DNA from: a bacterium
GTDB lineage: Bacteria > Hinthialibacterota > Hinthialibacteria > Hinthialibacterales > Hinthialibacteraceae
Reading direction: 5' to 3'
Length of the DNA: 64,000 bases
NCBI GenBank assembly: GCA_963663405.2
Contig: CAXXSM010000012.1
Coordinates: forward strand, 8,989-72,988
Below are positions 28,150 to 63,940 of this stretch, piece by piece. Each line of letters begins with the position of its first letter. Within the stretch, counting starts at the first letter, position 1. The translations under genes were made by a program, and so were the position numbers. The notes under the pieces are model-generated. The model saw nothing but the letters and a program-made list of their open reading frames with translations, was not told the origin of the DNA and did no database searches.

Positions 28150-28255
28150 AAATACATTTTTCGATTGAACTTTAATCCCCCCATTACGTTTCATCAAAGA
28201 GGGTATCTACACCCACAAGTGTTTCACTCCATGTGTCAAGAAAGGAAAAACAACC

Positions 28256-29251
28256 ATGCGTATTCTCACAAGTTCTCTTCTTGGGATTCTGATTGCGGCT
28301 GTGTCCCCCTTCCTAAACGCGAACAGCGCCAGAGCGGAAGAACAAATCGTTCTAAATCCATCACCGCAGGATACACTTCCTATCCTTGGATCAACTGGAA
28401 TGATCGAGAAAGGCGTTGAAACTCTCACAGTCCGGTTGAAGAATGGTGAAACCACCATTGTGCCCGTCCCACTTGAAAATGATGTTCCTCTCGATATCAG
28501 CAAACGGCAATATGGAAAAGGAAAACAATTAGAAAAAGACGCCAAGGATTTTCCCGAATTGGCGAAAACGGGCCTGCACAATGAAGACCAATTGAGAAAG
28601 ACAAAGACGATTACGGGAAAACCAGTTGATGAGATTACAAAAATCGGCCGCCCGAACCAAGCCTCCAGCGCAGGATTCATAGATGAGGATGAAGATATCC
28701 TTTCCGTGTTAATCGGTGACAACCGGCTTGTGCGGAGTATGGGCCTGACACATCCCGAACTGGCCAAACCATTATTCCATATATTGAATCTAGTCCTGGA
28801 CGAATATCAACGCAAAGGGCCCCAGCGCTTCATCCTCAGCGATGTCGAAGCGATTCTATACAATTATGAGGAGATTCACTTTAAGGGAGAGGGATCAAAA
28901 GGCTCTCAAGAATCCATTTTCAACGATGAAATCCGTGGCAACGCGCAATTCAATATCACACGGGATCTGAAGGAAGAAGAACAGGCGTTTTTAAAGAAAA
29001 AATACGCCCGCTTGAATACACTGGAATTTGATAAAATGGTTAAAAAACTCACTCTCATCCATACCGGCGAAATGGAACCGTATTACATCATGCGTTATGG
29101 TTTCTACGAGGGGCACACATACTTTCGCGCGGATCCCATCGCGATCGCGTTTGTTTTTGGATTGCTAAGCATTGAAGAAATTGAGAATGCATTCCCAGGA
29201 TGTCTATATGAAGCATTGACCGAACACTTCACGCCAAAAACAGTTCAATAA
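28256..29251 (+). CDS. Secreted hypothetical protein
   Basis: Signal peptide ending ARA-EE; motif-like C-terminus HTGEMEPYYIMRYGFYEGHT. Confidence 0.75.
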   Translation: MRILTSSLLGILIAAVSPFLNANSARAEEQIVLNPSPQDTLPILGSTGMIEKGVETLTVRLKNGETTIVPVPLENDVPLDISKRQYGKGKQLEKDAKDFPELAKTGLHNEDQLRKTKTITGKPVDEITKIGRPNQASSAGFIDEDEDILSVLIGDNRLVRSMGLTHPELAKPLFHILNLVLDEYQRKGPQRFILSDVEAILYNYEEIHFKGEGSKGSQESIFNDEIRGNAQFNITRDLKEEEQAFLKKKYARLNTLEFDKMVKKLTLIHTGEMEPYYIMRYGFYEGHTYFRADPIAIAFVFGLLSIEEIENAFPGCLYEALTEHFTPKTVQ

Positions 29252-29303
29252 TTCCTTCATATGGGAAATTTTGACGCCTTACACTGCTATACAGGATTCT
29301 TTA

Positions 29304-29385
29304 TTGTCTGAACCTTGATTCGCTTGATTTTCTTGATTTTTGAATCATGGTAATCCTATAATCCTTAGAATCAGGGTTCATACGA
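29304..29385. repeat. Degenerate family B inverted-repeat element (copy 2)
   Basis: TTGTCTGAACCTTGATT-(nnCTTGATT)x2 ... (AATC)x4-AGGGTTCATACGA. Confidence 0.55.
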
Positions 29386-29522
29386 TTATGTTATACTGCA
29401 AGATGAGCATAATGACTACAAGGATTCTTGGAACTGAATTATCGAAATAACATTTAATTCTAAATTCCGTAAATACATAAAAAAAATAGTATTCCATAGA
29501 AACCTTAACAAAGGATTATCGC

Positions 29523-30392
29523 GTGCACATAGTCATCTTTATTATCCTCTTTTTAATCTCACCAATTGCCACCGCAAAAGAACCGTTCGAACCAGAATTA
29601 ATAGAAATCCCCGCTGGGCCGTTTTTGTTCGGTTCGTCCCCCAAAGAACGAAGCGAATTCCTCACCCCCTCTCACGAACCGCATCAATCCAAAGTATTCC
29701 TTAACACATACTACATCGGAAAATTTGAAGTCACAAACGAAGAATACGCTTTCTTCATTGATGAAGGCGGGTATGAAAACAAAACATATTGGTCCGAAGA
29801 CGGCTGGCGGTTTCGAAATCGTTTTTCATGGAAGGAACCCCGCTGTTGGAGGGATAAAGACTATCACCTTTTATGGAAAGAAGGACGCCCCGTCTGCGCC
29901 GTCAGCTGGTTCGAAGCGCAGGCGTACTGTCGCTGGCTCTCGCTAAAGACAAACAAACCCTACCGGCTTCCCACGGAGCAGGAATGGGAAAAAGCCGCGC
30001 GGGGCCCCAACGGCTCCATCTTCCCTTGGGGCGATGAATGGGATCAAACCGCCTGCAATTGGCTGGGCGACCCACTTGGTTACCGCGATCCCAATCTCGA
30101 AATCGATCGTAATATACGCACGGGCCGCGTCGATTTCTATCCAAGTGGAGTCAGCTTTTACGGATGCCACAACATGGCCGGGAATGTGCTGGAATGGGTC
30201 GACGGCCCTTTTTATAAGAATGATGTGTCAAATACAACGATCCGGATCTTTCGTGGAGGTTCGTTCCTCTCCGGCTATCCCCGTTTTCTGCGCTGCGCCT
30301 GGCGAGGCGGAACCCGCCCGGAAATCGGCTATGTCTATTGGGGAATCATCGGTTTTCGAGTGGCGATGGACGCTGGGGAAGAAGAAAGTTAA
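29523..30392 (+). CDS. Formylglycine-generating enzyme (SUMF1/FGE-sulfatase) domain protein
   Basis: IPAGPFLFG, EVTNEEY, PV..VSWFEAQAYC, RLPTEQEWEKAARG, MAGNVLEW, RGGSF, GFR. Confidence 0.9.
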   Translation: MHIVIFIILFLISPIATAKEPFEPELIEIPAGPFLFGSSPKERSEFLTPSHEPHQSKVFLNTYYIGKFEVTNEEYAFFIDEGGYENKTYWSEDGWRFRNRFSWKEPRCWRDKDYHLLWKEGRPVCAVSWFEAQAYCRWLSLKTNKPYRLPTEQEWEKAARGPNGSIFPWGDEWDQTACNWLGDPLGYRDPNLEIDRNIRTGRVDFYPSGVSFYGCHNMAGNVLEWVDGPFYKNDVSNTTIRIFRGGSFLSGYPRFLRCAWRGGTRPEIGYVYWGIIGFRVAMDAGEEES

Positions 30393-30400
30393 TCACAACC

Positions 30401-32128
30401 GTGGAGAAAAATCCCTTCTACGAAAAAAACCTCTCATGCCTGCGCAAACGCGATCCACACTGCGCCGCCCGCTTGCCTTCCTCCGCTCCTATCAAAGAAC
30501 TGTCAACGGAATCCACACCATCACACAAATGGATTCAAGATAGTCTAAAAGAAAACTGCCAGCAAATTATTCTTTTAGGAACTGAATCGGGTCAAACGAT
30601 CAACACGATTTTAGAGCAGTACAATCCATTAAATCTAATCGTCATTGAAAAGAGCATGAAGCGTTTCGCCGGCGCCCTTGCCGCGTCCGATCTCACGAAC
30701 GCGCTAAGCGATCCACATGTATTCTGGATCATCGGCGACTCGCTGAGTGATATTCTGCCGGGGATTGAATATGTAAAAACCTCACTCGCCGCGCATGGTT
30801 TTCAATGCGTTCATTCTCCCAATTCTTCTCCACCCGATCGGCCCTTTTACCAAAAAGTCGCAGAAATCATCCATCGGGAAATAGAGCGTGAAGCAACCCA
30901 CCTCAAAACACGGCTCGCTCGTGGAATGTTGTCTCAAAGAAATCTAATCGCAAATGTTCCTGTTAGTATACGATCCCTTTCACCCGATAACGTGGCGAAT
31001 GCGTTTTTGCGCAAACCAGCGGTTGTAATCGCCGCAGGGCCATCACTCGATCAAAACATTGGCGCATTAGAGAAGGCGAATGATTCAACACTCTTAATCA
31101 GTGTCGACACAGCCACACGCGCGCTTCTGCAAGCGTGCGTTCAACCGCATGTGATCGTCACGTCGGACCCTTCCCCTGATAACGTAAAACATTTTGATGG
31201 AATCGATCTTCCACCGGAGATTCTACTCGCCTATCTCCCCGACACCCATTACGAGATCCTACGCCGGTTCACGAACCTTCCCCGCTTGCTATGCCTATTC
31301 GACGATAGCGCCCGGTTGAACTATTGGCTGCGGGAAATTCTCGGTTTTCATCGATTACTCATCCGTCCAACCAATGTCGCGGAAGCGGCGATCCGGCTCG
31401 CTCTATTGATGGGCTGCGATCCAATCATTCTTGTTGGCTTAGACCTTGCGCTGGCGCCGGTTGGAGGAAAAACGCATACGCAGGCGGGCGCGCTTTCAAA
31501 AACGATTAAAAATTATTCTCAAAATCAGGTCCAGATTGAAACCGAAACAGGCGCCATTATTTCGCAGAACCTTGTCCAGGTTCCCGGCTGGAACAGTGAA
31601 CTATTGCCGTCATATCCATCATTCAAACTCTATCTGGAACGCCTCGAAGAATTAATCGCGGATACCCCCATTACATGGATCGACGCGACGGAAGGCGGCG
31701 CTCGGAAACGGGGATGCGCGCAGATGACGTTAGCCGCCGCGCTGACCTCCATTCCCAATAAGAAACCGTCGATCAACGAACAGCTGCGGCGAATCCCTCC
31801 ACCAGATGATTCGCATTCGAAAAAATACCTAAAAACATTCCAGCAGGCGTTGAACCGCCTTTGTAATTTACGCGATGATCTCCAATCCATCGCGCAAGGA
31901 ACCATCACCGGAAACGCCGCGGAATCGATATGGAATGAGTTTCTACAAAATAAAGAAATAAGAGCCATGCTGGATCACGCTGTATTCCAGTTCCAGCTTC
32001 TTCCCCCACTTTCGAAAATTGTGGAGCAAGAACGGGCTGAGTTTCTGCGCAATCAATCCCAAAACGCCATCGAAATAATCAACCTTTTCATCCCCCTATG
32101 GGAAACCGCGCTCTCCGATTCCAAATAG
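30401..32128 (+). CDS. DUF115/Maf-family (MptE-like) motility-associated glycosyltransferase
   Basis: FYEKNL, VIAAGPSL, SVDTA, LMGCDPIILVGLDLA, IDATEGGA; GTG 30401 likely start. Confidence 0.8.
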   Translation: MEKNPFYEKNLSCLRKRDPHCAARLPSSAPIKELSTESTPSHKWIQDSLKENCQQIILLGTESGQTINTILEQYNPLNLIVIEKSMKRFAGALAASDLTNALSDPHVFWIIGDSLSDILPGIEYVKTSLAAHGFQCVHSPNSSPPDRPFYQKVAEIIHREIEREATHLKTRLARGMLSQRNLIANVPVSIRSLSPDNVANAFLRKPAVVIAAGPSLDQNIGALEKANDSTLLISVDTATRALLQACVQPHVIVTSDPSPDNVKHFDGIDLPPEILLAYLPDTHYEILRRFTNLPRLLCLFDDSARLNYWLREILGFHRLLIRPTNVAEAAIRLALLMGCDPIILVGLDLALAPVGGKTHTQAGALSKTIKNYSQNQVQIETETGAIISQNLVQVPGWNSELLPSYPSFKLYLERLEELIADTPITWIDATEGGARKRGCAQMTLAAALTSIPNKKPSINEQLRRIPPPDDSHSKKYLKTFQQALNRLCNLRDDLQSIAQGTITGNAAESIWNEFLQNKEIRAMLDHAVFQFQLLPPLSKIVEQERAEFLRNQSQNAIEIINLFIPLWETALSDSK

Positions 32129-32186
32129 AAACAAGGTATAGTACTTAACTATTATTGCTAAACAAAATCGACAGATTATATTTCAT

Positions 32187-32215
32187 TTTTGCGGGCGGGA
32201 CGCCCGCGCTCCATT
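32187..32215 (-). repeat. REP-like palindrome, family A copy 3
   Basis: Reverse complement reads AATGGAGCGCGGGCGTCCCGCCCGCAAAA. Confidence 0.8.
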
Positions 32216-32316
32216 ATGATATTATATGAAAATGAGTATCTAAGGCTCTCTCGTTCGTATTCGCTCCCGCAACTCATTTTCATTTGCAGGTTGTGATCTC
32301 AATGATAAGGATTAAT

Positions 32317-34479
32317 ATGAGTCACAAAATTTTTCGTGAATGGCGCGTTTGGTTTTGGTATTTGCCTCTTCTGTATGCTTTGTATTTGGAGATGAAAATC
32401 TTTAAATATGCGCAGGGATTCCCTATTGATGACGCCTATATTTATTCACGCTACATCCACAATCTCACGCAGGGATTCGGCCTCGGTTTCAATCCCGGTG
32501 AATTCAGCGCCGGGATTCCCGGTTTTCTCTACGTAATCCTCTGCGCGGGCGTTTCGATCGCGTTGCCATCATTGGATCTTTTCTTGATTCTCCAATTCAT
32601 GGGGATTTTCTGGTATCTCGTTCTGATTTTCCTCACGCAGAAATTGATCCACGATCAAACGAACAATTTGATCCTGAGCTTACTCGGTGGAATTCTCCTC
32701 GCCTTATGCCGTCCTCTCTATTTCACAGCGCTCGCAGGATTGGAAACGCCCCTATTTCTCACGCTGATGGTTTTTACCTGCTGGCTGGCTCTGCGCGAAC
32801 CACCAGTCAGCCCGGTCTGGTTGGGAGCCACATGCGCTCTGGTCTGTCTAACCCGTCTGGAAGGCGTTGCGATCGCCATGGGCTACTGCTTCTTCATCCT
32901 TCTAGGCGCGTTTGTTTTCAACAAACAAATGAAGGGCTCATTCGTTAAATCTTTATTTGAACTCATCTATTTTCTAAGTGGATTCATTCTCGTAACATTA
33001 CCATTCGCTCTTTTTATCTATATAAAAACCGGTTTTTGGCTTCCTACCGATTATTATGGAGAACTCCTCAATCGGAATGGCTTTTCCACACTCCCCACCG
33101 CCGCTCATTTGGAAAAAGGATTCCTGGCAATCTTTAACGGATACTCGGAAATTCTTACCCTGGATTCAACATCGATCATCTATTGCGGTCTGTTCGCGTT
33201 AAGCGGTGTCTCATTATTGATTTTTATCTATCGCTGCGGAGAAAAACCACCCAGCCTGCGTTTTTTCGCGGCCCGATCTACAATGTTTTCTCTTATACTA
33301 TGGCCGTTTCTCTATGGTTTCTTTTTCAAATTCGATCCTCAATTCGGGCGCCAGTATATTCATTACTTGCAGATTGTGATCGTCATCATTCACATCGAAG
33401 CGATCGTGGGAGTCAACGGCATTCTCCGAAATGCTGTACAGTATATCCCTTACCGAAGCCTTCAATTCGTTATCGTCTGCCTCTGCGCTTATGCGCTAAG
33501 CTATTACACGTGCAAGGCGGTCATCTCCACAGCCCGGCAGTCACATAAAAAAGAATTAACTTCCATGATCGATCGATCACGGGAACACGAACAGATTTAT
33601 AAACAAGCGGCATTATGGATCCGCAGTCATACACCGCCTGGAGCCCGGATTTTAACAGGCTTGATGGGCCCCGGCGCGATTGGTTACTACTCCGGCCGGT
33701 ATGTGATCGAGCAATGTGATTGGGCCGGCGCCGGAAGGTTTACCAGTAGACAATCCTTCTCCCTCGACGATCCTCAACAAAAGCGAAGTTATTGGAAACA
33801 CGCGATGGAAACCATGCGGCTCGAACGTGTCAACTACTTCGTCAGTTCCGCCTCTATGAATATCACACAGGACACCCGCTTCGCCAGAGAAATTCTGACA
33901 CTTTCAGACTCGAAGCGCAAAAACGTGTATCCGGTCATCCATCAAAAAGCGTTTATCTATCATTTTGACGCGCCCGAAGAATATATTTTATGGGACGAAC
34001 ACCCCCAGTTCATCGATCGCGCGAAATTTCCCATCACCGAAGGGCGGATGATCTCCACTTTCTGGCATGATATACCCATCGTGGCCGTGGATGTCCGGGA
34101 GGTGACCTCCGAACTGCGCTATAATGTCATTCTTCCTGACCGCCCTCATCTCGTAGCAGGCGCCGCGTTGGATTTCCCTCCCCGTGACTATACAGAGGAA
34201 GAAACGGTCCATTATACGATTCACATCGAGTTGGAAGAGAAGAAAGATATAATTTACACGAAGACTTTTCAAATGAACCAGGCGAAACCGAGAGATATCC
34301 TGACGGAATTTGATATCGATCTAAAATCATACAGCGGCCGGCATGCGGCGCTCGTATTTTCTCTCTCCGTTCCGCCGAAAAAGTATCCCGGAAAAATCTG
34401 GGCGGGATGGGTTCATCCCCGAATCTTGAACAAAATGGAGGGCGGGCGTCCCGCCCGCCATAAATATAATAAAATATAA
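32317..34479 (+). CDS. GT-C-type membrane glycosyltransferase-like protein
   Basis: IDDAYIYSRY..NL..G.G..FNPGE, GLETPL, LTRLEG, GAIGYYS motifs; start uncertain (ORF open from 32284). Confidence 0.7.
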   Translation: MSHKIFREWRVWFWYLPLLYALYLEMKIFKYAQGFPIDDAYIYSRYIHNLTQGFGLGFNPGEFSAGIPGFLYVILCAGVSIALPSLDLFLILQFMGIFWYLVLIFLTQKLIHDQTNNLILSLLGGILLALCRPLYFTALAGLETPLFLTLMVFTCWLALREPPVSPVWLGATCALVCLTRLEGVAIAMGYCFFILLGAFVFNKQMKGSFVKSLFELIYFLSGFILVTLPFALFIYIKTGFWLPTDYYGELLNRNGFSTLPTAAHLEKGFLAIFNGYSEILTLDSTSIIYCGLFALSGVSLLIFIYRCGEKPPSLRFFAARSTMFSLILWPFLYGFFFKFDPQFGRQYIHYLQIVIVIIHIEAIVGVNGILRNAVQYIPYRSLQFVIVCLCAYALSYYTCKAVISTARQSHKKELTSMIDRSREHEQIYKQAALWIRSHTPPGARILTGLMGPGAIGYYSGRYVIEQCDWAGAGRFTSRQSFSLDDPQQKRSYWKHAMETMRLERVNYFVSSASMNITQDTRFAREILTLSDSKRKNVYPVIHQKAFIYHFDAPEEYILWDEHPQFIDRAKFPITEGRMISTFWHDIPIVAVDVREVTSELRYNVILPDRPHLVAGAALDFPPRDYTEEETVHYTIHIELEEKKDIIYTKTFQMNQAKPRDILTEFDIDLKSYSGRHAALVFSLSVPPKKYPGKIWAGWVHPRILNKMEGGRPARHKYNKI
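34434..34462 (+). repeat. REP-like palindrome, family A copy 4 (inside CDS 3' end)
   Basis: AATGGAGGGCGGGCGTCCCGCCCGCCATA, translated as MEGGRPARH. Confidence 0.75.
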
Positions 34480-59101: not shown

Positions 59102-59176
59102 AACGGCATTCGTCCGAGTGATGGATTTTATGGATTCAATGCCAGGACAGACTTCGCATTGCCCTGGACGCCCGGC
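59102..59176. repeat. Cassette-junction hairpin repeat (family C), copy 1
   Basis: AACGGCATTCGTCCGAGT...GCCAGGACAGACTTCGCATTGCCCTGGACGCCCGGC; near-identical to 63802-63875. Confidence 0.85.
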
Positions 59177-59682
59177 TATAGTTGACAAACATAAACAGTT
59201 AAAACGAAGTCATTATTTTCATCTTCACATGTAACTTCATCTTCCGATTCGATCTCAGTTAAATCATCCCAAGAAATATAATCAACTCCTTTTAAAAAAC
59301 TTGAACATATTGGTTCTACTGAGGCTATCATCTCGACTATGCACTGGAAAGGTAATGGTTCATTAATTGTTCCTGCAATTAAACTAAAATTTAGCGAACC
59401 TGCCATTTCATCATACCAAGAGTAAAATATATGAGGTACGCCTTCCTTTATTTCTACGGCTCTTAATTTCCAGAAACTTACAACCGCATTAATAAAGGCC
59501 ACAATATCACTAATTTTATATTTCTTTCTACTTTCTTCTGGTAATGAGAAAGACCAATGATTTGATCTACATTCATCTTCATTATCCCCACTTAAAACCA
59601 GTGTACATTGTTTGAGTTCATCAAACCATTCTATAAATGGAGTTTTAAGCTGTTTGCTATAATCAAATGTTGAATTGTTCAT
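59176..59682 (-). CDS. AT-rich hypothetical protein, immunity-protein-like
   Basis: Acidic small protein with FYSWYDEMAGSLNFS...LPF; TAATG-coupled to an upstream stub; stop codon abuts the repeat. Confidence 0.65.
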   Translation of the reverse strand: MNNSTFDYSKQLKTPFIEWFDELKQCTLVLSGDNEDECRSNHWSFSLPEESRKKYKISDIVAFINAVVSFWKLRAVEIKEGVPHIFYSWYDEMAGSLNFSLIAGTINEPLPFQCIVEMIASVEPICSSFLKGVDYISWDDLTEIESEDEVTCEDENNDFVLTVYVCQL

Positions 59683-59846: not shown

Positions 59847-59898
59847 GGTTTCTGGATTCAATGCCATGACAGACTTCGCATTGCCCTGGGCGCCCAGC
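59847..59898. repeat. Cassette-junction hairpin repeat (family C), copy 2
   Basis: GGTTTCTGGATTCAATGCCATGACAGACTTCGCATTGCCCTGGGCGCCCAGC. Confidence 0.85.
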
Positions 59899-59908
59899 AA
59901 ACTACAAT

Positions 59909-60358
59909 TCACGAATCCAGAAATGAATCCTCATGCGCATCATCAAGCGCATCTTCTATGGCAACGGTTAAATCCTTCCATTCCTCCTCACTTAACATAA
60001 CTTTAAATTGTTCTGTTTGTCCTAGTTTTCCTTCTGTTACTTGTTGTATACATAGACGTCCTTCATCAAAAAACCAATTTAAAGATCCACCTAAGCAATT
60101 ATCGATTGTATACTCAGAAAATAAAGTTCCATCTAAGCAATTATCAATTATATACTCAGATGGATTTTCACTACGGATAAAACTAACAATGTTGGTTAAG
60201 ATGGATAAATTTTCAATATTAAACTGAAGCCATATCTTTCCATCATATATAACAGCGCCATATAGAGTTTCTGCTCCTTTTTCAATTTCATCAATCTCCA
60301 CACGCCATTCTCCATATAAGCCGCATCCTAATAAACCACGTGTAATATCCTCATCCAT
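59909..60358 (-). CDS. AT-rich acidic hypothetical protein with internal 42-bp duplication
   Basis: 149-aa ORF; SEYIIDNCLDGTLF/SEYTIDNCLGGSLN. Confidence 0.6.
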   Translation of the reverse strand: MDEDITRGLLGCGLYGEWRVEIDEIEKGAETLYGAVIYDGKIWLQFNIENLSILTNIVSFIRSENPSEYIIDNCLDGTLFSEYTIDNCLGGSLNWFFDEGRLCIQQVTEGKLGQTEQFKVMLSEEEWKDLTVAIEDALDDAHEDSFLDS

Positions 60359-60378: not shown

Positions 60379-60475
60379 CGGGTAGCCAGGGCAAGAACTT
60401 GCGCTTATAACGGAGCCTTTATTTTCATCTAAAAGCCGCCACCGCGTGGTGTTGTCGTTACTGTCGTGACATTCT
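60379..60475. repeat. Half family C hairpin plus ~65-bp segment repeated at 63876-63940
   Basis: CGGGTAGCCAGGGCAAG then CGGAGCCTTTATTTTCATCTAA (22 bp identical to 63876) and a diverged continuation. Confidence 0.75.
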
Positions 60476-60519: not shown

Positions 60520-60652
60520 TCATTCAAGTGGGACGCGGTTCATTTTGCCGTGTTTAACATGCAAAACTTGAACCGTTTGACCTTGAATGCGGAATAAAAT
60601 TCTATAATTTCCAACGATCAGGTTTCTAATTTCAAAATCGTGAAAAGCCATT
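60520..60652 (-). pseudogene. 3' half of RelE/ParE toxin gene, separated by the IS91-like insertion
   Basis: MAFHDFEIRNLIVGNYRILFRIQGQTVQVLHVKHG is a RelE/ParE C-terminus; joins in frame with 63077-63249. Confidence 0.85.
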
Positions 60653-60801
60653 GGACGAAGCGGCTCCGCCGCAGAGTGTCGTACGCCGAATTTTCTAGTT
60701 GAACAATCCCCTTGCGAAATCTCCTGAGTTGTCATGTATTTCTTCTGAGAAGGCAGTGGCTGTAAGACTGCCAACCACTACTTATTTACAGGAGAAAGAT
60801 C

Positions 60802-61116
60802 ATGAAATCATTACGGAAACGCATGATCGAAGACATGACGTTAGCAGGACTGAGCGAAGGCACGCAAAAAGCATACGTCCGAGCCGTCGCCTCATTCGCT
60901 CTAGAATTTGATTGCTCGCCAGAATGCATTAGCGAGGAACTCGTCCGGGTCTATTTACTGAATTTGCGAGACGTGAAGAAAGTCGCTCTCGGAACGTTTC
61001 AGGTCCACTACAGCGCGCTGAAATTTCTTTATCAAACCACGCTGGATCTGGGGTGGCCGTTGTTTGCAAAAAAAAGATTCGTAAGCCTCGCCAAAAGCGC
61101 CTGCCGCATTCATTAA
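60802..61116 (+). CDS. Tyrosine recombinase N-terminal SAM-like domain (ORF A)
   Basis: LRKRMIEDM.L.GLSE.TQKAYVRAV...P.......VRVYLL.L......TF....SALKFLY; AGGAG RBS. Confidence 0.85.
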   Translation: MKSLRKRMIEDMTLAGLSEGTQKAYVRAVASFALEFDCSPECISEELVRVYLLNLRDVKKVALGTFQVHYSALKFLYQTTLDLGWPLFAKKRFVSLAKSACRIH

Positions 61117-61649
61117 CCCATTCCCAAGTTCGCGCCCTCCTGGCCGCCGTCAGGAAAACGCCCTACCGGTTGGCTCTAACGTTGATGTATGCGTGCGGCC
61201 TTCGGACCAGTGAAGTCATCTCTCTTCCGGTGCGGCAGATCGATTCCAACCAAATGAGTTTACGGATTATTGGGAAGGGCGATAAAGAGCGAATCGTTCC
61301 TCTCCCGGACACCTTGTTGGAGCCGATGCGTGAACTCTGGTTGATGCATCGCCATCCCACCTGGCTATTCCCCAACCAACAAGGCTCCAACCACATTCCC
61401 TCATCGACACTCGGCAAAGCGTTTCGCTTGGCCTGTAACGCTACCGGGCTGACAGACGATGTGAAGCCGCATTCGATGCGTCATTCGTTTGCCAGCAGAT
61501 TGCTGGAGAACGGCGAAAGCCTGCGCGTTGTCCAGATTCTTCTCGGCCATTCCAGTATTCGTTCGACACAGATCTACACTCATTTGACTGAGCCGCTTCG
61601 CCACGAGGCTCAGGATCGGATCAACGCCGTGTTCGCCGATCTGATGTGA
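61068..61649 (+). CDS. Tyrosine recombinase catalytic domain (ORF B, -1 frame relative to ORF A)
   Basis: KRLP, YACGLR.SE, GKGDKER, HSMRHSFA, LLGH, TQIYTH: full R-K-H-R-H-Y set. Confidence 0.92.
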   Translation, partial: KKKIRKPRQKRLPHSLTHSQVRALLAAVRKTPYRLALTLMYACGLRTSEVISLPVRQIDSNQMSLRIIGKGDKERIVPLPDTLLEPMRELWLMHRHPTWLFPNQQGSNHIPSSTLGKAFRLACNATGLTDDVKPHSMRHSFASRLLENGESLRVVQILLGHSSIRSTQIYTHLTEPLRHEAQDRINAVFADLM

Positions 61650-61658
61650 GGAGGAATC

Positions 61659-62825
61659 ATGAATTGCACTTCATCGAACCTCGAACTCGGCGATGTGGTT
61701 CGCCGGTTTGGCCCGGCCTATATCCGGCAGCAAGGGAAGCGCCTTTTGCCCTCCCAGCGTAAAGCGCTGCACGATATCATGGCCTGTCATACGGCGGAAC
61801 TGGGAGGGCATCGTTATCACTGTCAGGACTGCGGCGAAGACTTCTGGGTGTATCACGGGTGTGGCAATCGATCCTGTCCGTCCTGTCATTCCCAGGCGAT
61901 GCGGCAATGGATCGAGAAGCGGGAAGACCAGATGCTTGGCTGCCGTTACTTTCATGTAATCGTAACAGTTCCGCAGTCTATCCGGGCGGCTTTCTTGGCT
62001 CATCAAAAGATTCTCTATGGGTTGCTGATGACGACGGCTGCTTCCTGTATCATGGATCTGATGCGCAATCCCCAAGTCGTTGGCGGTACCCCGGCGATCC
62101 TGGCCGTGCTGCACACTTGGCGGGGAGATCTGGAATTGCATCCACATGTCCATCTGTTGGTCAGCGCCGGCGCCGTGAGTGAGGACGGCCACTCTTGGAT
62201 GGAACTCCGCCACCCGAAATGGCTTCTCCATGTGGGAACGCTCAGCTTACTCGTTCGCCGGCGCTTTAAAGAACGGCTCGAAAAAGCGGCGCCGGAGATC
62301 TTCCAAGGCATCGAGACCAAGGTCTGGAATAGAGGCTGGAACTCGTTCTGCAAACCGTATGGCAAAGGCGTGAAAGCCATCTTGAATTACCTGGGGCGCT
62401 ATGTCTATCGCATCGCGATCTCCAACCACCGGCTTCTGGCAATGGACGCTACCCACGTGACGTTCCGCTACAAGACCTTCAAAGAGAAGCATTGGCGAAC
62501 TCTCCGCTTGCCGGGCGAAGAATTTCTGCGGCGCTTCGTGATGCATGTGCTCCCCCGCGGCTTCCATAAAGTCCGCTACTATGGGCTGTGGCATCACTGT
62601 CATCGGGACACACGCAATCGAATCCGTTTGCTCCTCGCCCCCAAGGCGGAGAGCGTTTCTATTCCCGAATCGGTTGAGAATTCCATCGTTTCAAAAGAGA
62701 CCAACGACAAAGCAGTATTCGATCGGACCGGCCAAGAATCGGCGCCGGAATGGCCTAAATGTCCGCGTTGCAAAAGCTGTAACGTGATTGTCATTGAAAC
62801 CCTCAATCGGAATCGAAGCCCCTGA
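61659..62825 (+). CDS. IS91-family (Y2/HUH) transposase with N-terminal Zn-binding domain
   Basis: CHT..LGG.RYHC..C...YHGCGNRSCPSC, HTW....HPHVH (HUH), YLGRY (Y2), EFLRRF..HVLP.GF.KVRYYG; GAGGAGG RBS. Confidence 0.93.
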   Translation: MNCTSSNLELGDVVRRFGPAYIRQQGKRLLPSQRKALHDIMACHTAELGGHRYHCQDCGEDFWVYHGCGNRSCPSCHSQAMRQWIEKREDQMLGCRYFHVIVTVPQSIRAAFLAHQKILYGLLMTTAASCIMDLMRNPQVVGGTPAILAVLHTWRGDLELHPHVHLLVSAGAVSEDGHSWMELRHPKWLLHVGTLSLLVRRRFKERLEKAAPEIFQGIETKVWNRGWNSFCKPYGKGVKAILNYLGRYVYRIAISNHRLLAMDATHVTFRYKTFKEKHWRTLRLPGEEFLRRFVMHVLPRGFHKVRYYGLWHHCHRDTRNRIRLLLAPKAESVSIPESVENSIVSKETNDKAVFDRTGQESAPEWPKCPRCKSCNVIVIETLNRNRSP

Positions 62826-63076
62826 TCGATTCCGATTGTAAGCATCGCGATGGTAATATAAAGAAATTATAACTTTACGCGGGAAGATTTTTTACTTTTC
62901 TTGCCGTGAGGGGATTTCTATAGCTTCAAGAGGATTTTCTCTTTCTAAACTATCAACTTCTCTTCCTCAATTAAGCCGTTTCGCGAATAAATGGCGTGTT
63001 ATTGGTTCTCACATTCCCCCCGCACTTCGTCCAATAGAGTTTGTATCTCGGCTTCGCTCGATAAAAACTCCTATCT

Positions 63077-63249
63077 ATTTCATCCGCATAAGGACAACGG
63101 GAAGGAAACTGAGAAAGGGTTTTAATTTTATCCATGATTTCCCCATACCATTTCACGGCGTTTGGGAGGGAATCTTGTGCGATGACATCAACGTAATACT
63201 CGATTTCATCGATAACGGATGGGGAGATATGAACTTTAAAAACCTGCAT
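63077..63249 (-). pseudogene. 5' half of RelE/ParE toxin gene
   Basis: MQVFKVHISP....EIE....IAQDS...A.KW...I..L.QFP.RCP; overlaps the antitoxin stop codon. Confidence 0.85.
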
Positions 63250-63529
63250 CGGGGTATTTTGCAGATAATTTTTCACTCAGTCTAGCAAACGCTTCTTCCG
63301 CTGATATGGCCTGACCTTCATCATGTTGTTTGACGGCTTTGGTGATTTGTTTTAGGGAATGTAACAAAGAAAACATCTCTTCATAAGACTTTGCGTCTTG
63401 TATGACGATTTCGGCTTTTCCATTTACGGTTAAAACTTCGGGCCGGCCGGTTTCTTTGAGACGTTTTATATATTCCGCCGGTTTGCGGCTAAAATCCGAA
63501 ATGGGGTGTATTGAATCGGTCGTAAACAT
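63236..63529 (-). CDS. Phd/YefM-family antitoxin
   Basis: IHPISDF.R......RLKETGRPEVLTVNGKAEIVIQDA.SYE. Confidence 0.9.
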   Translation of the reverse strand: MFTTDSIHPISDFSRKPAEYIKRLKETGRPEVLTVNGKAEIVIQDAKSYEEMFSLLHSLKQITKAVKQHDEGQAISAEEAFARLSEKLSAKYPDAGF

Positions 63530-63756: not shown

Positions 63757-63940
63757 GTGGCCAGGGCAGATGAAAAAACCTTGCCCTGGGTACCCGGCGG
63801 GAACGGCATTCGTCCGAGTAATGGGTTTCTGGGTTCAATGCCAGGGCAGACTTCGCATTGCCCTGGGTACCCGGCCGGAGCCTTTATTTTCATCTAATAA
63901 CTGCAACTGCGCGGCGTTGTCATTACTGGCGCTACGTTAT
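63754..63940. repeat. Family C composite: hairpin variant + full unit + 65-bp segment
   Basis: CGGGTGGCCAGGGCA..TGCCCTGGGTACCCG (63754-96); full unit 63802-63875; segment 63876-63940. Confidence 0.85.

Follow-up and report, generated by a model that had tools for sequence, protein, structure and literature searches.

Ends, conserved fold and target preference of a recombinase-carrying IS91-family element in a member of the Hinthialibacterota

The subject of this report is an insert of 2,427 bp that occupies positions 60651-63077 of a 64,000-nucleotide stretch of DNA, here called the window, from a bacterium of the Hinthialibacterota (assembly GCA_963663405.2, contig CAXXSM010000012.1, positions 8,989 to 72,988 of the forward strand). 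The insert is intact and contains three open reading frames (ORFs) on the plus strand; two of these encode the parts of a tyrosine recombinase (TR), and the third encodes a rolling-circle transposase. The initial annotation of the window described a recombinase plus rolling-circle transposase element at this place, and both the element and the end strings that it quoted are present where it put them. The element is a member of the IS91 family, and not an integron. More precisely, it is an intact, recently active copy from the recombinase-carrying branch of this family, with the left end as terIS and the right end as oriIS. The features of the element and its immediate borders, all on the plus strand, are as follows.

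60650: left flank base A, derived from the target; A in 10 of 13 copies, covarying in the family with X1
60651..60660: left-end box TTGGACGAAG, the terIS-like terminus; a perfect inverted copy of 63025-63034
60660..60672: left mini-hairpin GCGGC-TCC-GCCGC; GCGNAGC on the bottom strand, present in the junction fold
60802..61116: TR ORF 1, N-terminal SAM-like DNA-binding domain (Pfam PF13495, 64.1 bits)
61068..61076: A8-G run where the two TR frames overlap and a -1 frame shift is required (putative recoding site)
61053..61649: TR ORF 2, catalytic domain in the -1 frame (Pfam PF00589, 140 bits)
61659..62825: IS91-family Y2 HUH transposase with an N-terminal zinc-binding domain (Pfam PF04986 and PF14319)
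63025..63035: right-end box CTTCGTCCAA followed by X1 (T at 63035), with pairing to the left end and the flank base beyond it
63037..63070: oriIS-like hairpin, apex GCTTCGC at 63051-63057 (GCGAAGC on the bottom strand), seen in folding and in family covariation
63071..63077: predicted single-stranded tail CTATCTA; 63077 is the last base of the element
63078..63079: target TT, unduplicated; present directly after the right end of all 13 host-genome copies

Assignment to the IS91 family is based on the enzyme, the ends and the target. The 388-amino acid transposase matches the NCBIfam model NF033538 with 343.8 bits, against a cut-off of 125, and its H161, H163, Y244 and Y248 (the HUH motif and both tyrosines) are invariant in 32 sequences, namely the window transposase and 31 of the 120 matches listed, which form the profile alignment. 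As in the family at large, a Y2 HUH transposase with a zinc-binding domain and a YxxxY motif is combined with subterminal palindromes and a short target that is not duplicated. The CTTG/GTTC target is absent; this tetranucleotide is a feature of the studied members, rather than one that defines the family. The initial annotation correctly set the target apart from it, and here it is N|TT, where the bar marks the point of insertion. The TR gene lies directly upstream of the transposase gene and inside the element, which places it in the recombinase-carrying subgroup.

This gene pair has already been catalogued, and a passage in PMC9208149 counts 245 IS91-XerD couples in 15 phyla. The same pair, as an IS91 element with an upstream 'phage integrase' gene, is annotated by NCBI on plasmids. 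ISWz1, ISShvi3 and ISAzo26, two of which occur in papers, are names that we take to be ISfinder designations for IS91-family elements of this kind. A literature search on recombinase-carrying IS91 elements, with ISfinder, TnPedia and supplements outside its scope, found nothing on their ends, target rule, recoding or the role of the TR.

The borders of the element are defined by its other copies. The host genome (8.44 Mb in 170 contigs, 82% complete) contains 13 full-length copies, of which 11 are at least 99.3% identical and two are about 95% identical, together with two interrupted copies and older relics. With 13 copies, 11 of them this similar, the element is active and present in many copies, and its activity is recent. 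In the window, ATTGGACGAAG begins at 60650 and CTTCGTCCAAT is found at 63025-63035, while the right end reads ...AAACTCCTATCTA up to 63077 and is followed by TT at 63078-63079. In the host genome, every copy has ..TATCTA as its end and TT directly after it. TTGGAC is preceded by A in 10 of the 13 near-identical copies, and by G, C and T once each; one of the ten A's is the last base of an upstream tandem unit. Since this base varies among near-identical copies, the A at 60650 belongs to the flank, and the join lies between N and TT. A 3-bp target duplication of ATT is ruled out by the copies with G, C or T at the left. The ATT strings that had been noted at both junctions are there, but the left A is a variable flank base, and the element proper is 60651-63077.

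In assembly-graph contigs from two public sequencing runs, breaks occur at 60650/60651 and 63079/63080, and the depth is 26-34 in the element versus about 3.6 in the flanks. Neither an empty-site bridge nor a circle-type joint is listed in these two runs, which as assembled contigs rather than reads carry no weight either way.

One pair of copies gives the junction of the two ends directly. On contig C118 of the host genome (G000), copies at 28164-30594 and 30592-33021 (loci L004 and L008) stand head to tail with one ATT in common. There is a single TT between the units, and the predicted joined ends thus occur as natural DNA. This junction folds as the initial annotation had drawn it, with -20.8 kcal/mol (z -5.5) for the top strand and -20.0 kcal/mol (z -4.3) for the bottom strand. 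In this tandem, the left end of a resident copy was struck in a genome with only 13 copies, which by a rough estimate is far above chance.

Several further copies in the host genome are of interest in their own right. Those at G000:C149:154125-156554 and C6:9467-11895 differ from the window copy by about 5%, and nearly all of the differences are coding. Of 152 and 254 positions in the two non-coding ends, the C149 copy differs at 1 and 0, respectively, and the C6 copy at 0 and 8. The pattern suggests that variants have undergone mosaic exchange, or else that the ends are very strongly constrained. Two copies on C103 (19125-22063 and 40327-45044) are broken by other insertions, one with an 8-nt query overlap at the break; a duplicated left-end fragment with the same flank also occurs there, and a relic on C129 has a homologous left flank. 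At G000:C4:54522-56290, a truncated variant of 89% identity has the TR catalytic part and the transposase in one open frame of 560 amino acids.

Relatives of the element are numerous. Among 8,000 candidates scored, 5,441 transposase homologues were found at E <=1e-20. Eighty loci were fetched from genome contigs, where 315 of 527 candidate stretches were confirmed, and another 80 from metagenome contigs, where 526 of 599 were confirmed. These relatives were found by an alignment-based scan; a scan of the genome contigs with a single protein had found none. The 160 loci, with transposase identities of 34-67%, have the same layout as the window element, and the TR half lies upstream of the transposase in 78 of 80 genome loci and 76 of 80 metagenome loci. 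Six loci are without it: L064 is truncated at its 5' side, and was for this reason rejected as a recombinase-less relative, and five are on contigs whose first base is in the transposase gene or shortly upstream of it. The TR-transposase pair also occurs in four plasmid relatives of 34-37% identity. A transposase homologue was found in two of 40 other genomes, which are relatives of the host.

Individual relatives show some additional features at the right end. At L055 (4410-4520), a full copy is followed by TT and then by the last ~110 nt of another copy; L055 was considered as a nested insertion giving an empty site, and rejected since its right flank is this 3' fragment. The right-end tail recurs in short tandem repeats after several relatives, as in L117 (~2618-2655, 20 nt), in L142 (10 nt), and in the right flanks of L098, L199 and L093. 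The tail repeats and the partial copy at L055 may be abortive or repeated events at oriIS. L130 (NZ_CP155766.1), a circular Sphingomonas 'plasmid' of 4,862 bp, has a site-specific integrase and an IS91-family transposase as its only annotated genes, with the remaining ~2.3 kb unannotated. Its end layout is alike in a diverged form. The record was considered as a possible dimer or circle junction, and is neither of these.

The ends are conserved across these relatives, as is the fold of their junction. The left end begins N|TTGGAC (or TTGAAC or TTGCAC), which on the bottom strand reads RYYYAA up to the presumed cut, and is followed a few bases on by a mini-hairpin, N-CGGC-TNC-GCCG-N. The pattern N-CGGC-loop-GCCG-N is present in 55 of 57 distinct left ends, 52 of the 55 having the TNC loop; 40 have G-C as the outer pair and 8 have A-T. 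The right end consists, in order, of an inverted box of 10-12 nt (..GTCCAA), one to three bases, a hairpin of about 15 bp, a tail of 5-8 nt, and |TT. The box lies 42-46 nt inside the right end, and is an inverted copy of the first 7-14 bases of the left end; in one clade the copy extends to about 38 bases with a 1-nt indel. This indel, at box position 12, is common in that clade and absent from the window element. The tail motif (TATCTA, TGTCTG or ..TTCG) is kept in 50 distinct right ends.

The right hairpin covaries. In 51 distinct right ends, 87.4% of cells are paired, compared with 40-48.5% when the partners are slid. Changes on both sides are found in 12 of the 17 pairs, with 121 double-change cells versus 40 in shuffles, and none of 500 shuffles reaches the score; seven loci were left out of this count due to a right end cut by a contig end, a disruption, or a false motif match. 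Because the hairpin covaries across the family, it is under selection. In the window element the inner hairpin on its own is weak (-5.6 kcal/mol, z -2.0), while relatives have a clean stem of about 15 bp (-19.6 kcal/mol, z -4.9, in L073). The initial annotation had proposed an imperfect inner stem enclosed by the joined ends, and suggested that homologues be checked for the same ends and junction fold; homologues do keep both, with covariation. The inner stem is real, but lies wholly within the right end, and end joining is needed for the outer stem only.

The position of the hairpin downstream of the transposase gene would also suit a terminator or another RNA element of that gene, and a chance palindrome may be considered as well. 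The hairpin is, however, 200-290 nt past the stop codon and has no T-run after it. Scans against Rfam and for terminators and promoters gave no match at either end, the same tip motif occurs at the left end upstream of the genes, and the covariation is strong. An origin of the hairpin in RNA function or in chance is thus very improbable.

Three lines of evidence point to the bottom strand, as single-stranded DNA, as the strand that folds. Firstly, the tip of the right hairpin is GCTNCGC in 39 of 51 right ends (N is T in 22, C in 11, A in 4 and G in 2), which is GCGNAGC on the bottom strand. Secondly, the left mini-hairpin has the same motif. Thirdly, among mismatches in the upper 15 pairs, 30 are G.T on the bottom strand and 7 on the top strand, in cells that are clustered by clade. 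The bottom-strand folding with attC-like character that was initially suggested is in line with this. The bottom strand is the strand displaced in the IS91 model, and also the strand that integrons recombine. As regards the tips, GCGNAGC with any N is described in the abstract of PMC13037366 as an extraordinarily stable 'mini-hairpin DNA' motif.

The covariation by itself does not exclude that the ends are double-stranded protein-binding sites, since inverted repeats and palindromes covary under duplex binding too. The TR would then be a plain resolvase of cointegrates or dimers, acting on a duplex site, and parts of PMC13181058 and PMC5737581 describe rolling-circle and one-ended events of IS91 that yield products in need of resolution. 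Against this, GCGNAGC with a free N is present at both tips and on one strand, the wobble pairs show the asymmetry of 30 versus 7, and a flank base that does not belong to the element covaries with X1, as described below. Inspection for a duplex core site, with its two arms separated by 6-8 bp, found none, and enzymes of the HUH family are established to act on single strands. Ends that function purely as duplex sites are therefore considered unlikely.

The target was examined in 96 independent insertions with both flanks known, after removal of the tandem-internal junction, flanks containing N, and duplicates. In 95 of the 96, the right end is directly followed by TT. The right flank is TT and then mostly T or G, and further preferences are weak: 50 of 96 insertions have C at -3, and about half have T at +3 and +4. 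No element-specific signal is present in this set at flank positions -2 to -4. The base before TT, in contrast, follows the element. It is complementary to X1, the base after the right-end ..GTCCAA, in 58 of 96 insertions (28.3 on average under permutation, sd 4.3, and never as high in 5000 permutations), and it is identical to the last tail base in 55 of 96 (permuted mean 35.9, sd 4.0). By set, pairing with X1 is seen in 37 of 57 genome insertions, or 25 of 38 at one insertion per element, and in 25 of 43 from metagenomes, where 8 of 20000 permutations are as high. Both rules are satisfied by 40 of the 52 flanks in elements whose X1 and tail base pair.

The target, as read from these insertions, is thus TT plus one base matched to the element, without duplication and without a fixed ATT. 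The initial annotation had taken the target to be a 3-bp ATT, which does not stand. It had also asked for a shared triplet at the crossover; most elements do have RTT there (ATT is preferred in the host genome and GTT in an alphaproteobacterial clade), but the first position of the triplet varies. The information content of the target is low, which is typical of HUH enzymes.

The TR, like the transposase, is well conserved. All 45 sequences compared (the window TR and 44 of 50 non-redundant relatives) share its R51, K75, H140, R143, H166 and Y175 without exception. Compared with a 95% copy, codon changes in the catalytic part are synonymous in 35 cases and non-synonymous in 17 (36 and 14 in the transposase), and because of this ratio the TR gene is read as being under purifying selection. 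The gene is split between its two domains at a poly-A run. Among 120 non-redundant relatives, a frame change occurs at an A7-A9 run in 101; the TR requires a -1 shift in 88, mostly at A8-G, and a +1 shift in 13, and is in frame with the run broken in the other 19. The diverged copies in the host genome all keep the A-run. The split therefore looks like programmed recoding, by frameshifting or transcriptional slippage, rather than decay, and the clade with +1 suggests slippage as the common mechanism. Literature on recoding of the TR in this branch was searched for and none was found; the frameshift matches concerned IS911, not IS91.

By profile scores, the TR falls between Xer and IntI, with all scores below the cut-offs. 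In a relative with an in-frame TR, the integron-integrase model TIGR02249 gives 157.6 bits (cut-off 265), and the XerC and XerD models give 141-148 bits, also below their cut-offs. TIGR02249 matches the TR in two stretches (profile positions 88-176 and 231-303) that are 13 residues apart, as opposed to about 54 profile positions. Some 41 residues are skipped, so the IntI-specific insertion is absent, in agreement with the initial annotation. Part of a preprint (10.1101/542381) places IS91-borne TRs in an integron-like subgroup as the closest homologues of IntI without this insertion, and the published version (PMC8138268), in the part seen here, keeps the subgroup without naming IS91. The designation 'integron-like' for this TR has the preprint statement and the profile scores as its basis.

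How these elements move can be approached from the known behaviour of IS91. For IS91, the HUH enzyme alone suffices for transposition. A reading in which insertion is driven by the HUH enzyme and guided by the box, with the same enzyme also cutting the target, is held here with middling confidence. In such a scheme, the Y2 HUH transposase would cut the bottom strand between the flanking AA (TT on top) and the right-end tail, and the cut strand would be peeled or replicated off until a second cut is made at the left end, after ..GTCCAA. Next to the right hairpin, the 10-12-nt box would pair with the left end and one base beyond it, thus placing the new 3' end beside the 5' end, and would give the junction ..TATCTA|TTGGAC.. 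that is seen in the tandem. The same box could then read the target, as the complement of AA plus X1, so that the element lands between N and TT without duplication. The box would in this way act as a guide, similar to that of IS608. The TR would be a second-step enzyme on the same junction, for example resolving tandem or cointegrate products, and not an integrase. The HUH enzyme is favoured as the cutter of the target because the target resembles both sites that this enzyme must cut anyway (AA|X1). We infer from sequence which enzyme cuts where and that the box is a guide, and the sequence would fit either a 5' or a 3' link.

A number of observations weigh against insertion by the HUH enzyme with the box as guide. 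The TR is found wherever space allows (78 of 80 genome loci, 76 of 80 metagenome loci), is catalytically invariant and is under purifying selection, and in a model that relies on the HUH enzyme it has no defined job. The box fits the R box of integrons, RYYYAA|N, and is cut at the integron position; it may also be linked to the TR, as the one TR-less relative examined, IS91 itself, has no internal box. We know of no guide mechanism in IS91. The pairing rule itself has exceptions: of the 44 flanks in elements whose X1 does not pair with the tail, 18 pair with X1 and 15 have the base of the tail, and the rule fails where X1 is A (1 of 9 insertions). Since clades are not independent, the significance is overstated by the permutations. 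A bias in orientation relative to local GC skew was absent (9 versus 6).

The model of the initial annotation divides the work differently. Here the HUH enzyme would only make a bottom-strand circle, and the integron-like TR would bind the folded junction at an R box, GTCCAA/TTGGAC, cut it at AA|N as IntI cuts attC at RYYYAA|N, and exchange one strand with the target N|TT; replication would complete the insertion, as in attC x attI recombination or in CTX phage. Such a model gives one clear job to each enzyme, and has in its favour a TR that is always present, catalytically intact and recoded. It agrees with the folding of the bottom strand, and with the lead of the integron-integrase profile over XerC and XerD in the in-frame relative (157.6 versus 141-148 bits). 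The alphaproteobacterial clade has exact RYYYAAC/GTTRRRY boxes with the crossover at the integron position. The flank base at -1 follows both X1 (58 of 96) and the tail (55 of 96), as expected if both swapped ends must pair, and a tandem at a resident left end arose among only 13 copies. The proximity to IntI, without its insertion, that is stated in the available part of the preprint (10.1101/542381) is a further point in its favour.

Other evidence speaks against integration by the TR. Both tyrosines of the HUH enzyme are retained, as is the oriIS/terIS layout of the ends, so that insertion by this enzyme alone is possible. The targets share TT, one base and weak preferences, and contain no TR-binding box. 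No second half-site in the manner of an L box and no conserved extrahelical base was recognised in the comparison of ends, and the lower stem of the hairpin, which was considered as an L box, was rejected by inspection as unlike the box. The part of IntI that reads extrahelical bases is absent from the TR. Finally, the literature search found no experiment or paper on integration by such a TR. Integration of an HUH-made bottom-strand circle by the TR therefore remains a somewhat doubtful, minority view. If it were true, IS91-recombinase elements would be living relatives of the system that gave rise to attC/IntI recombination, and they would represent a transposon with a landing triplet set by pairing with its own DNA.

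The resemblance to IS91, IS801 and IS1294 extends to the details of the ends. In all of them oriIS lies 3' of a transposase gene of the same family, with a subterminal palindrome and a ..TCCTATC.. tail, and terIS has one palindrome beside the cut. The short, unduplicated target lies beside oriIS and resembles the last bases of terIS. In a plasmid record of IS91, the right terminus ..AAATTCCTATCGAT resembles ..AAACTCCTATCTA of the window element, and the tail CTATCTA resembles the IS91 right terminus ..TCCTATCGAT; the left terminus consists of the cut site and then the palindrome. A 2026 study (PMC13181058) describes, for the IS91 family, one subterminal palindrome at terIS and one or two at oriIS, circles in both single- and double-stranded form in which the ends are joined, and the absence of target duplication, with a tetranucleotide target beside oriIS that is essential for further movement. 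In the host genome, joined ends are seen in the chromosomal tandem. The window element differs in having the TR in place of orf121 of IS91, and its branch differs in a target of N|TT on the top strand rather than CTTG/GTTC, in the internal inverted copy of the left terminus, and in a flank base matched to a base of the element.

The attC likeness proposed initially holds in part. Like attC recombined with attI by IntI, the junction has a folded bottom strand, a crossover before TT, and a TR from the integron-like subgroup, as well as boxes of the form RYYYAA(C/T) and (G/A)TTRRRY, to which the other end contributes half of the outer box. The R''/R' boxes are exact in the alphaproteobacterial clade (GTCCAAC ... 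G|TTGGAC) and one base off in the window element (GTCCAAT ... A|TTGGAC). The RYYYAA|N geometry, the fold and the integron-like TR thus stand, but the layout is that of oriIS and terIS in IS91, and no L box or extrahelical bases were found. Unlike an integron, the TR is without the IntI insertion and scores below the cut-off of TIGR02249, and the element encodes both enzymes and occupies scattered sites, with no attI platform. No integron integrase above the cut-off was found in the host genome, which is 82% complete.

Two further systems share single features with the element. IS608, of the IS200/IS605 family, has subterminal hairpins at both ends, forms a single-strand circle and causes no duplication, and its cleavage and target sites are read by pairing with a guide carried by the element. 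The subterminal hairpins and the lack of duplication are shared with the window element, and the circle and guide pairing of IS608 have counterparts in the scheme favoured above. The enzyme of IS200/IS605 is, however, of the Y1 type with 4-nt guides and no accompanying recombinase, whereas the window transposase is a Y2 enzyme of 388 amino acids. In the integration of CTX phage and of integrative mobile elements exploiting Xer (IMEX), Xer exchanges one strand on folded or single-stranded substrates. Strand-biased circularizing integrative elements also utilise tyrosine recombinases that exchange one strand only, according to part of PMC9345347. Both systems differ from the window element in that host Xer at dif or several recombinases are involved, and no HUH enzyme.

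Elements of this kind are common, with 245 couples in 15 phyla in the portion of PMC9208149 cited above and thousands of transposase homologues, and some recombinase-carrying IS91 elements adjoin tet(X)/catB resistance clusters (PMC11194056). The window element and its relatives provide precise ends, a covarying fold, with tips of the mini-hairpin type, of what is probably the bottom strand, a target rule tied to a base of the element, and a conserved candidate recoding site in the TR. Two questions can now be taken to the bench: whether an integron-like TR acts on single-strand circles made by an HUH enzyme, and whether the choice of target in this branch is guided by DNA pairing.

The site interrupted by the element is a ParE toxin gene on the minus strand, next to its neighbouring antitoxin gene:

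60520..60651, minus strand: C-terminal part of the interrupted ParE toxin gene (Pfam PF05016, 25 bits, profile positions 54-88)
63079..63276, minus strand: N-terminal part of the interrupted ParE toxin gene (from the ORF list)
63236-63529, minus strand: intact Phd/YefM antitoxin gene (PF02604, 38.5 bits), which adjoins the split toxin gene

The surroundings of the insert contain repeats of two kinds. A repeat of 50-160 nt that contains palindromes is dispersed through intergenic sequence between small minus-strand genes, at window positions 59102-59224, 59849-59902, 60405-60473 and 63781-63938; an attC identity of these repeats is not established. In addition, two direct repeats of 39 nt, 90% identical and 42 nt apart, are located at 60080-60160 inside the ORF at 59909-60358, where they encode a repeated peptide segment.

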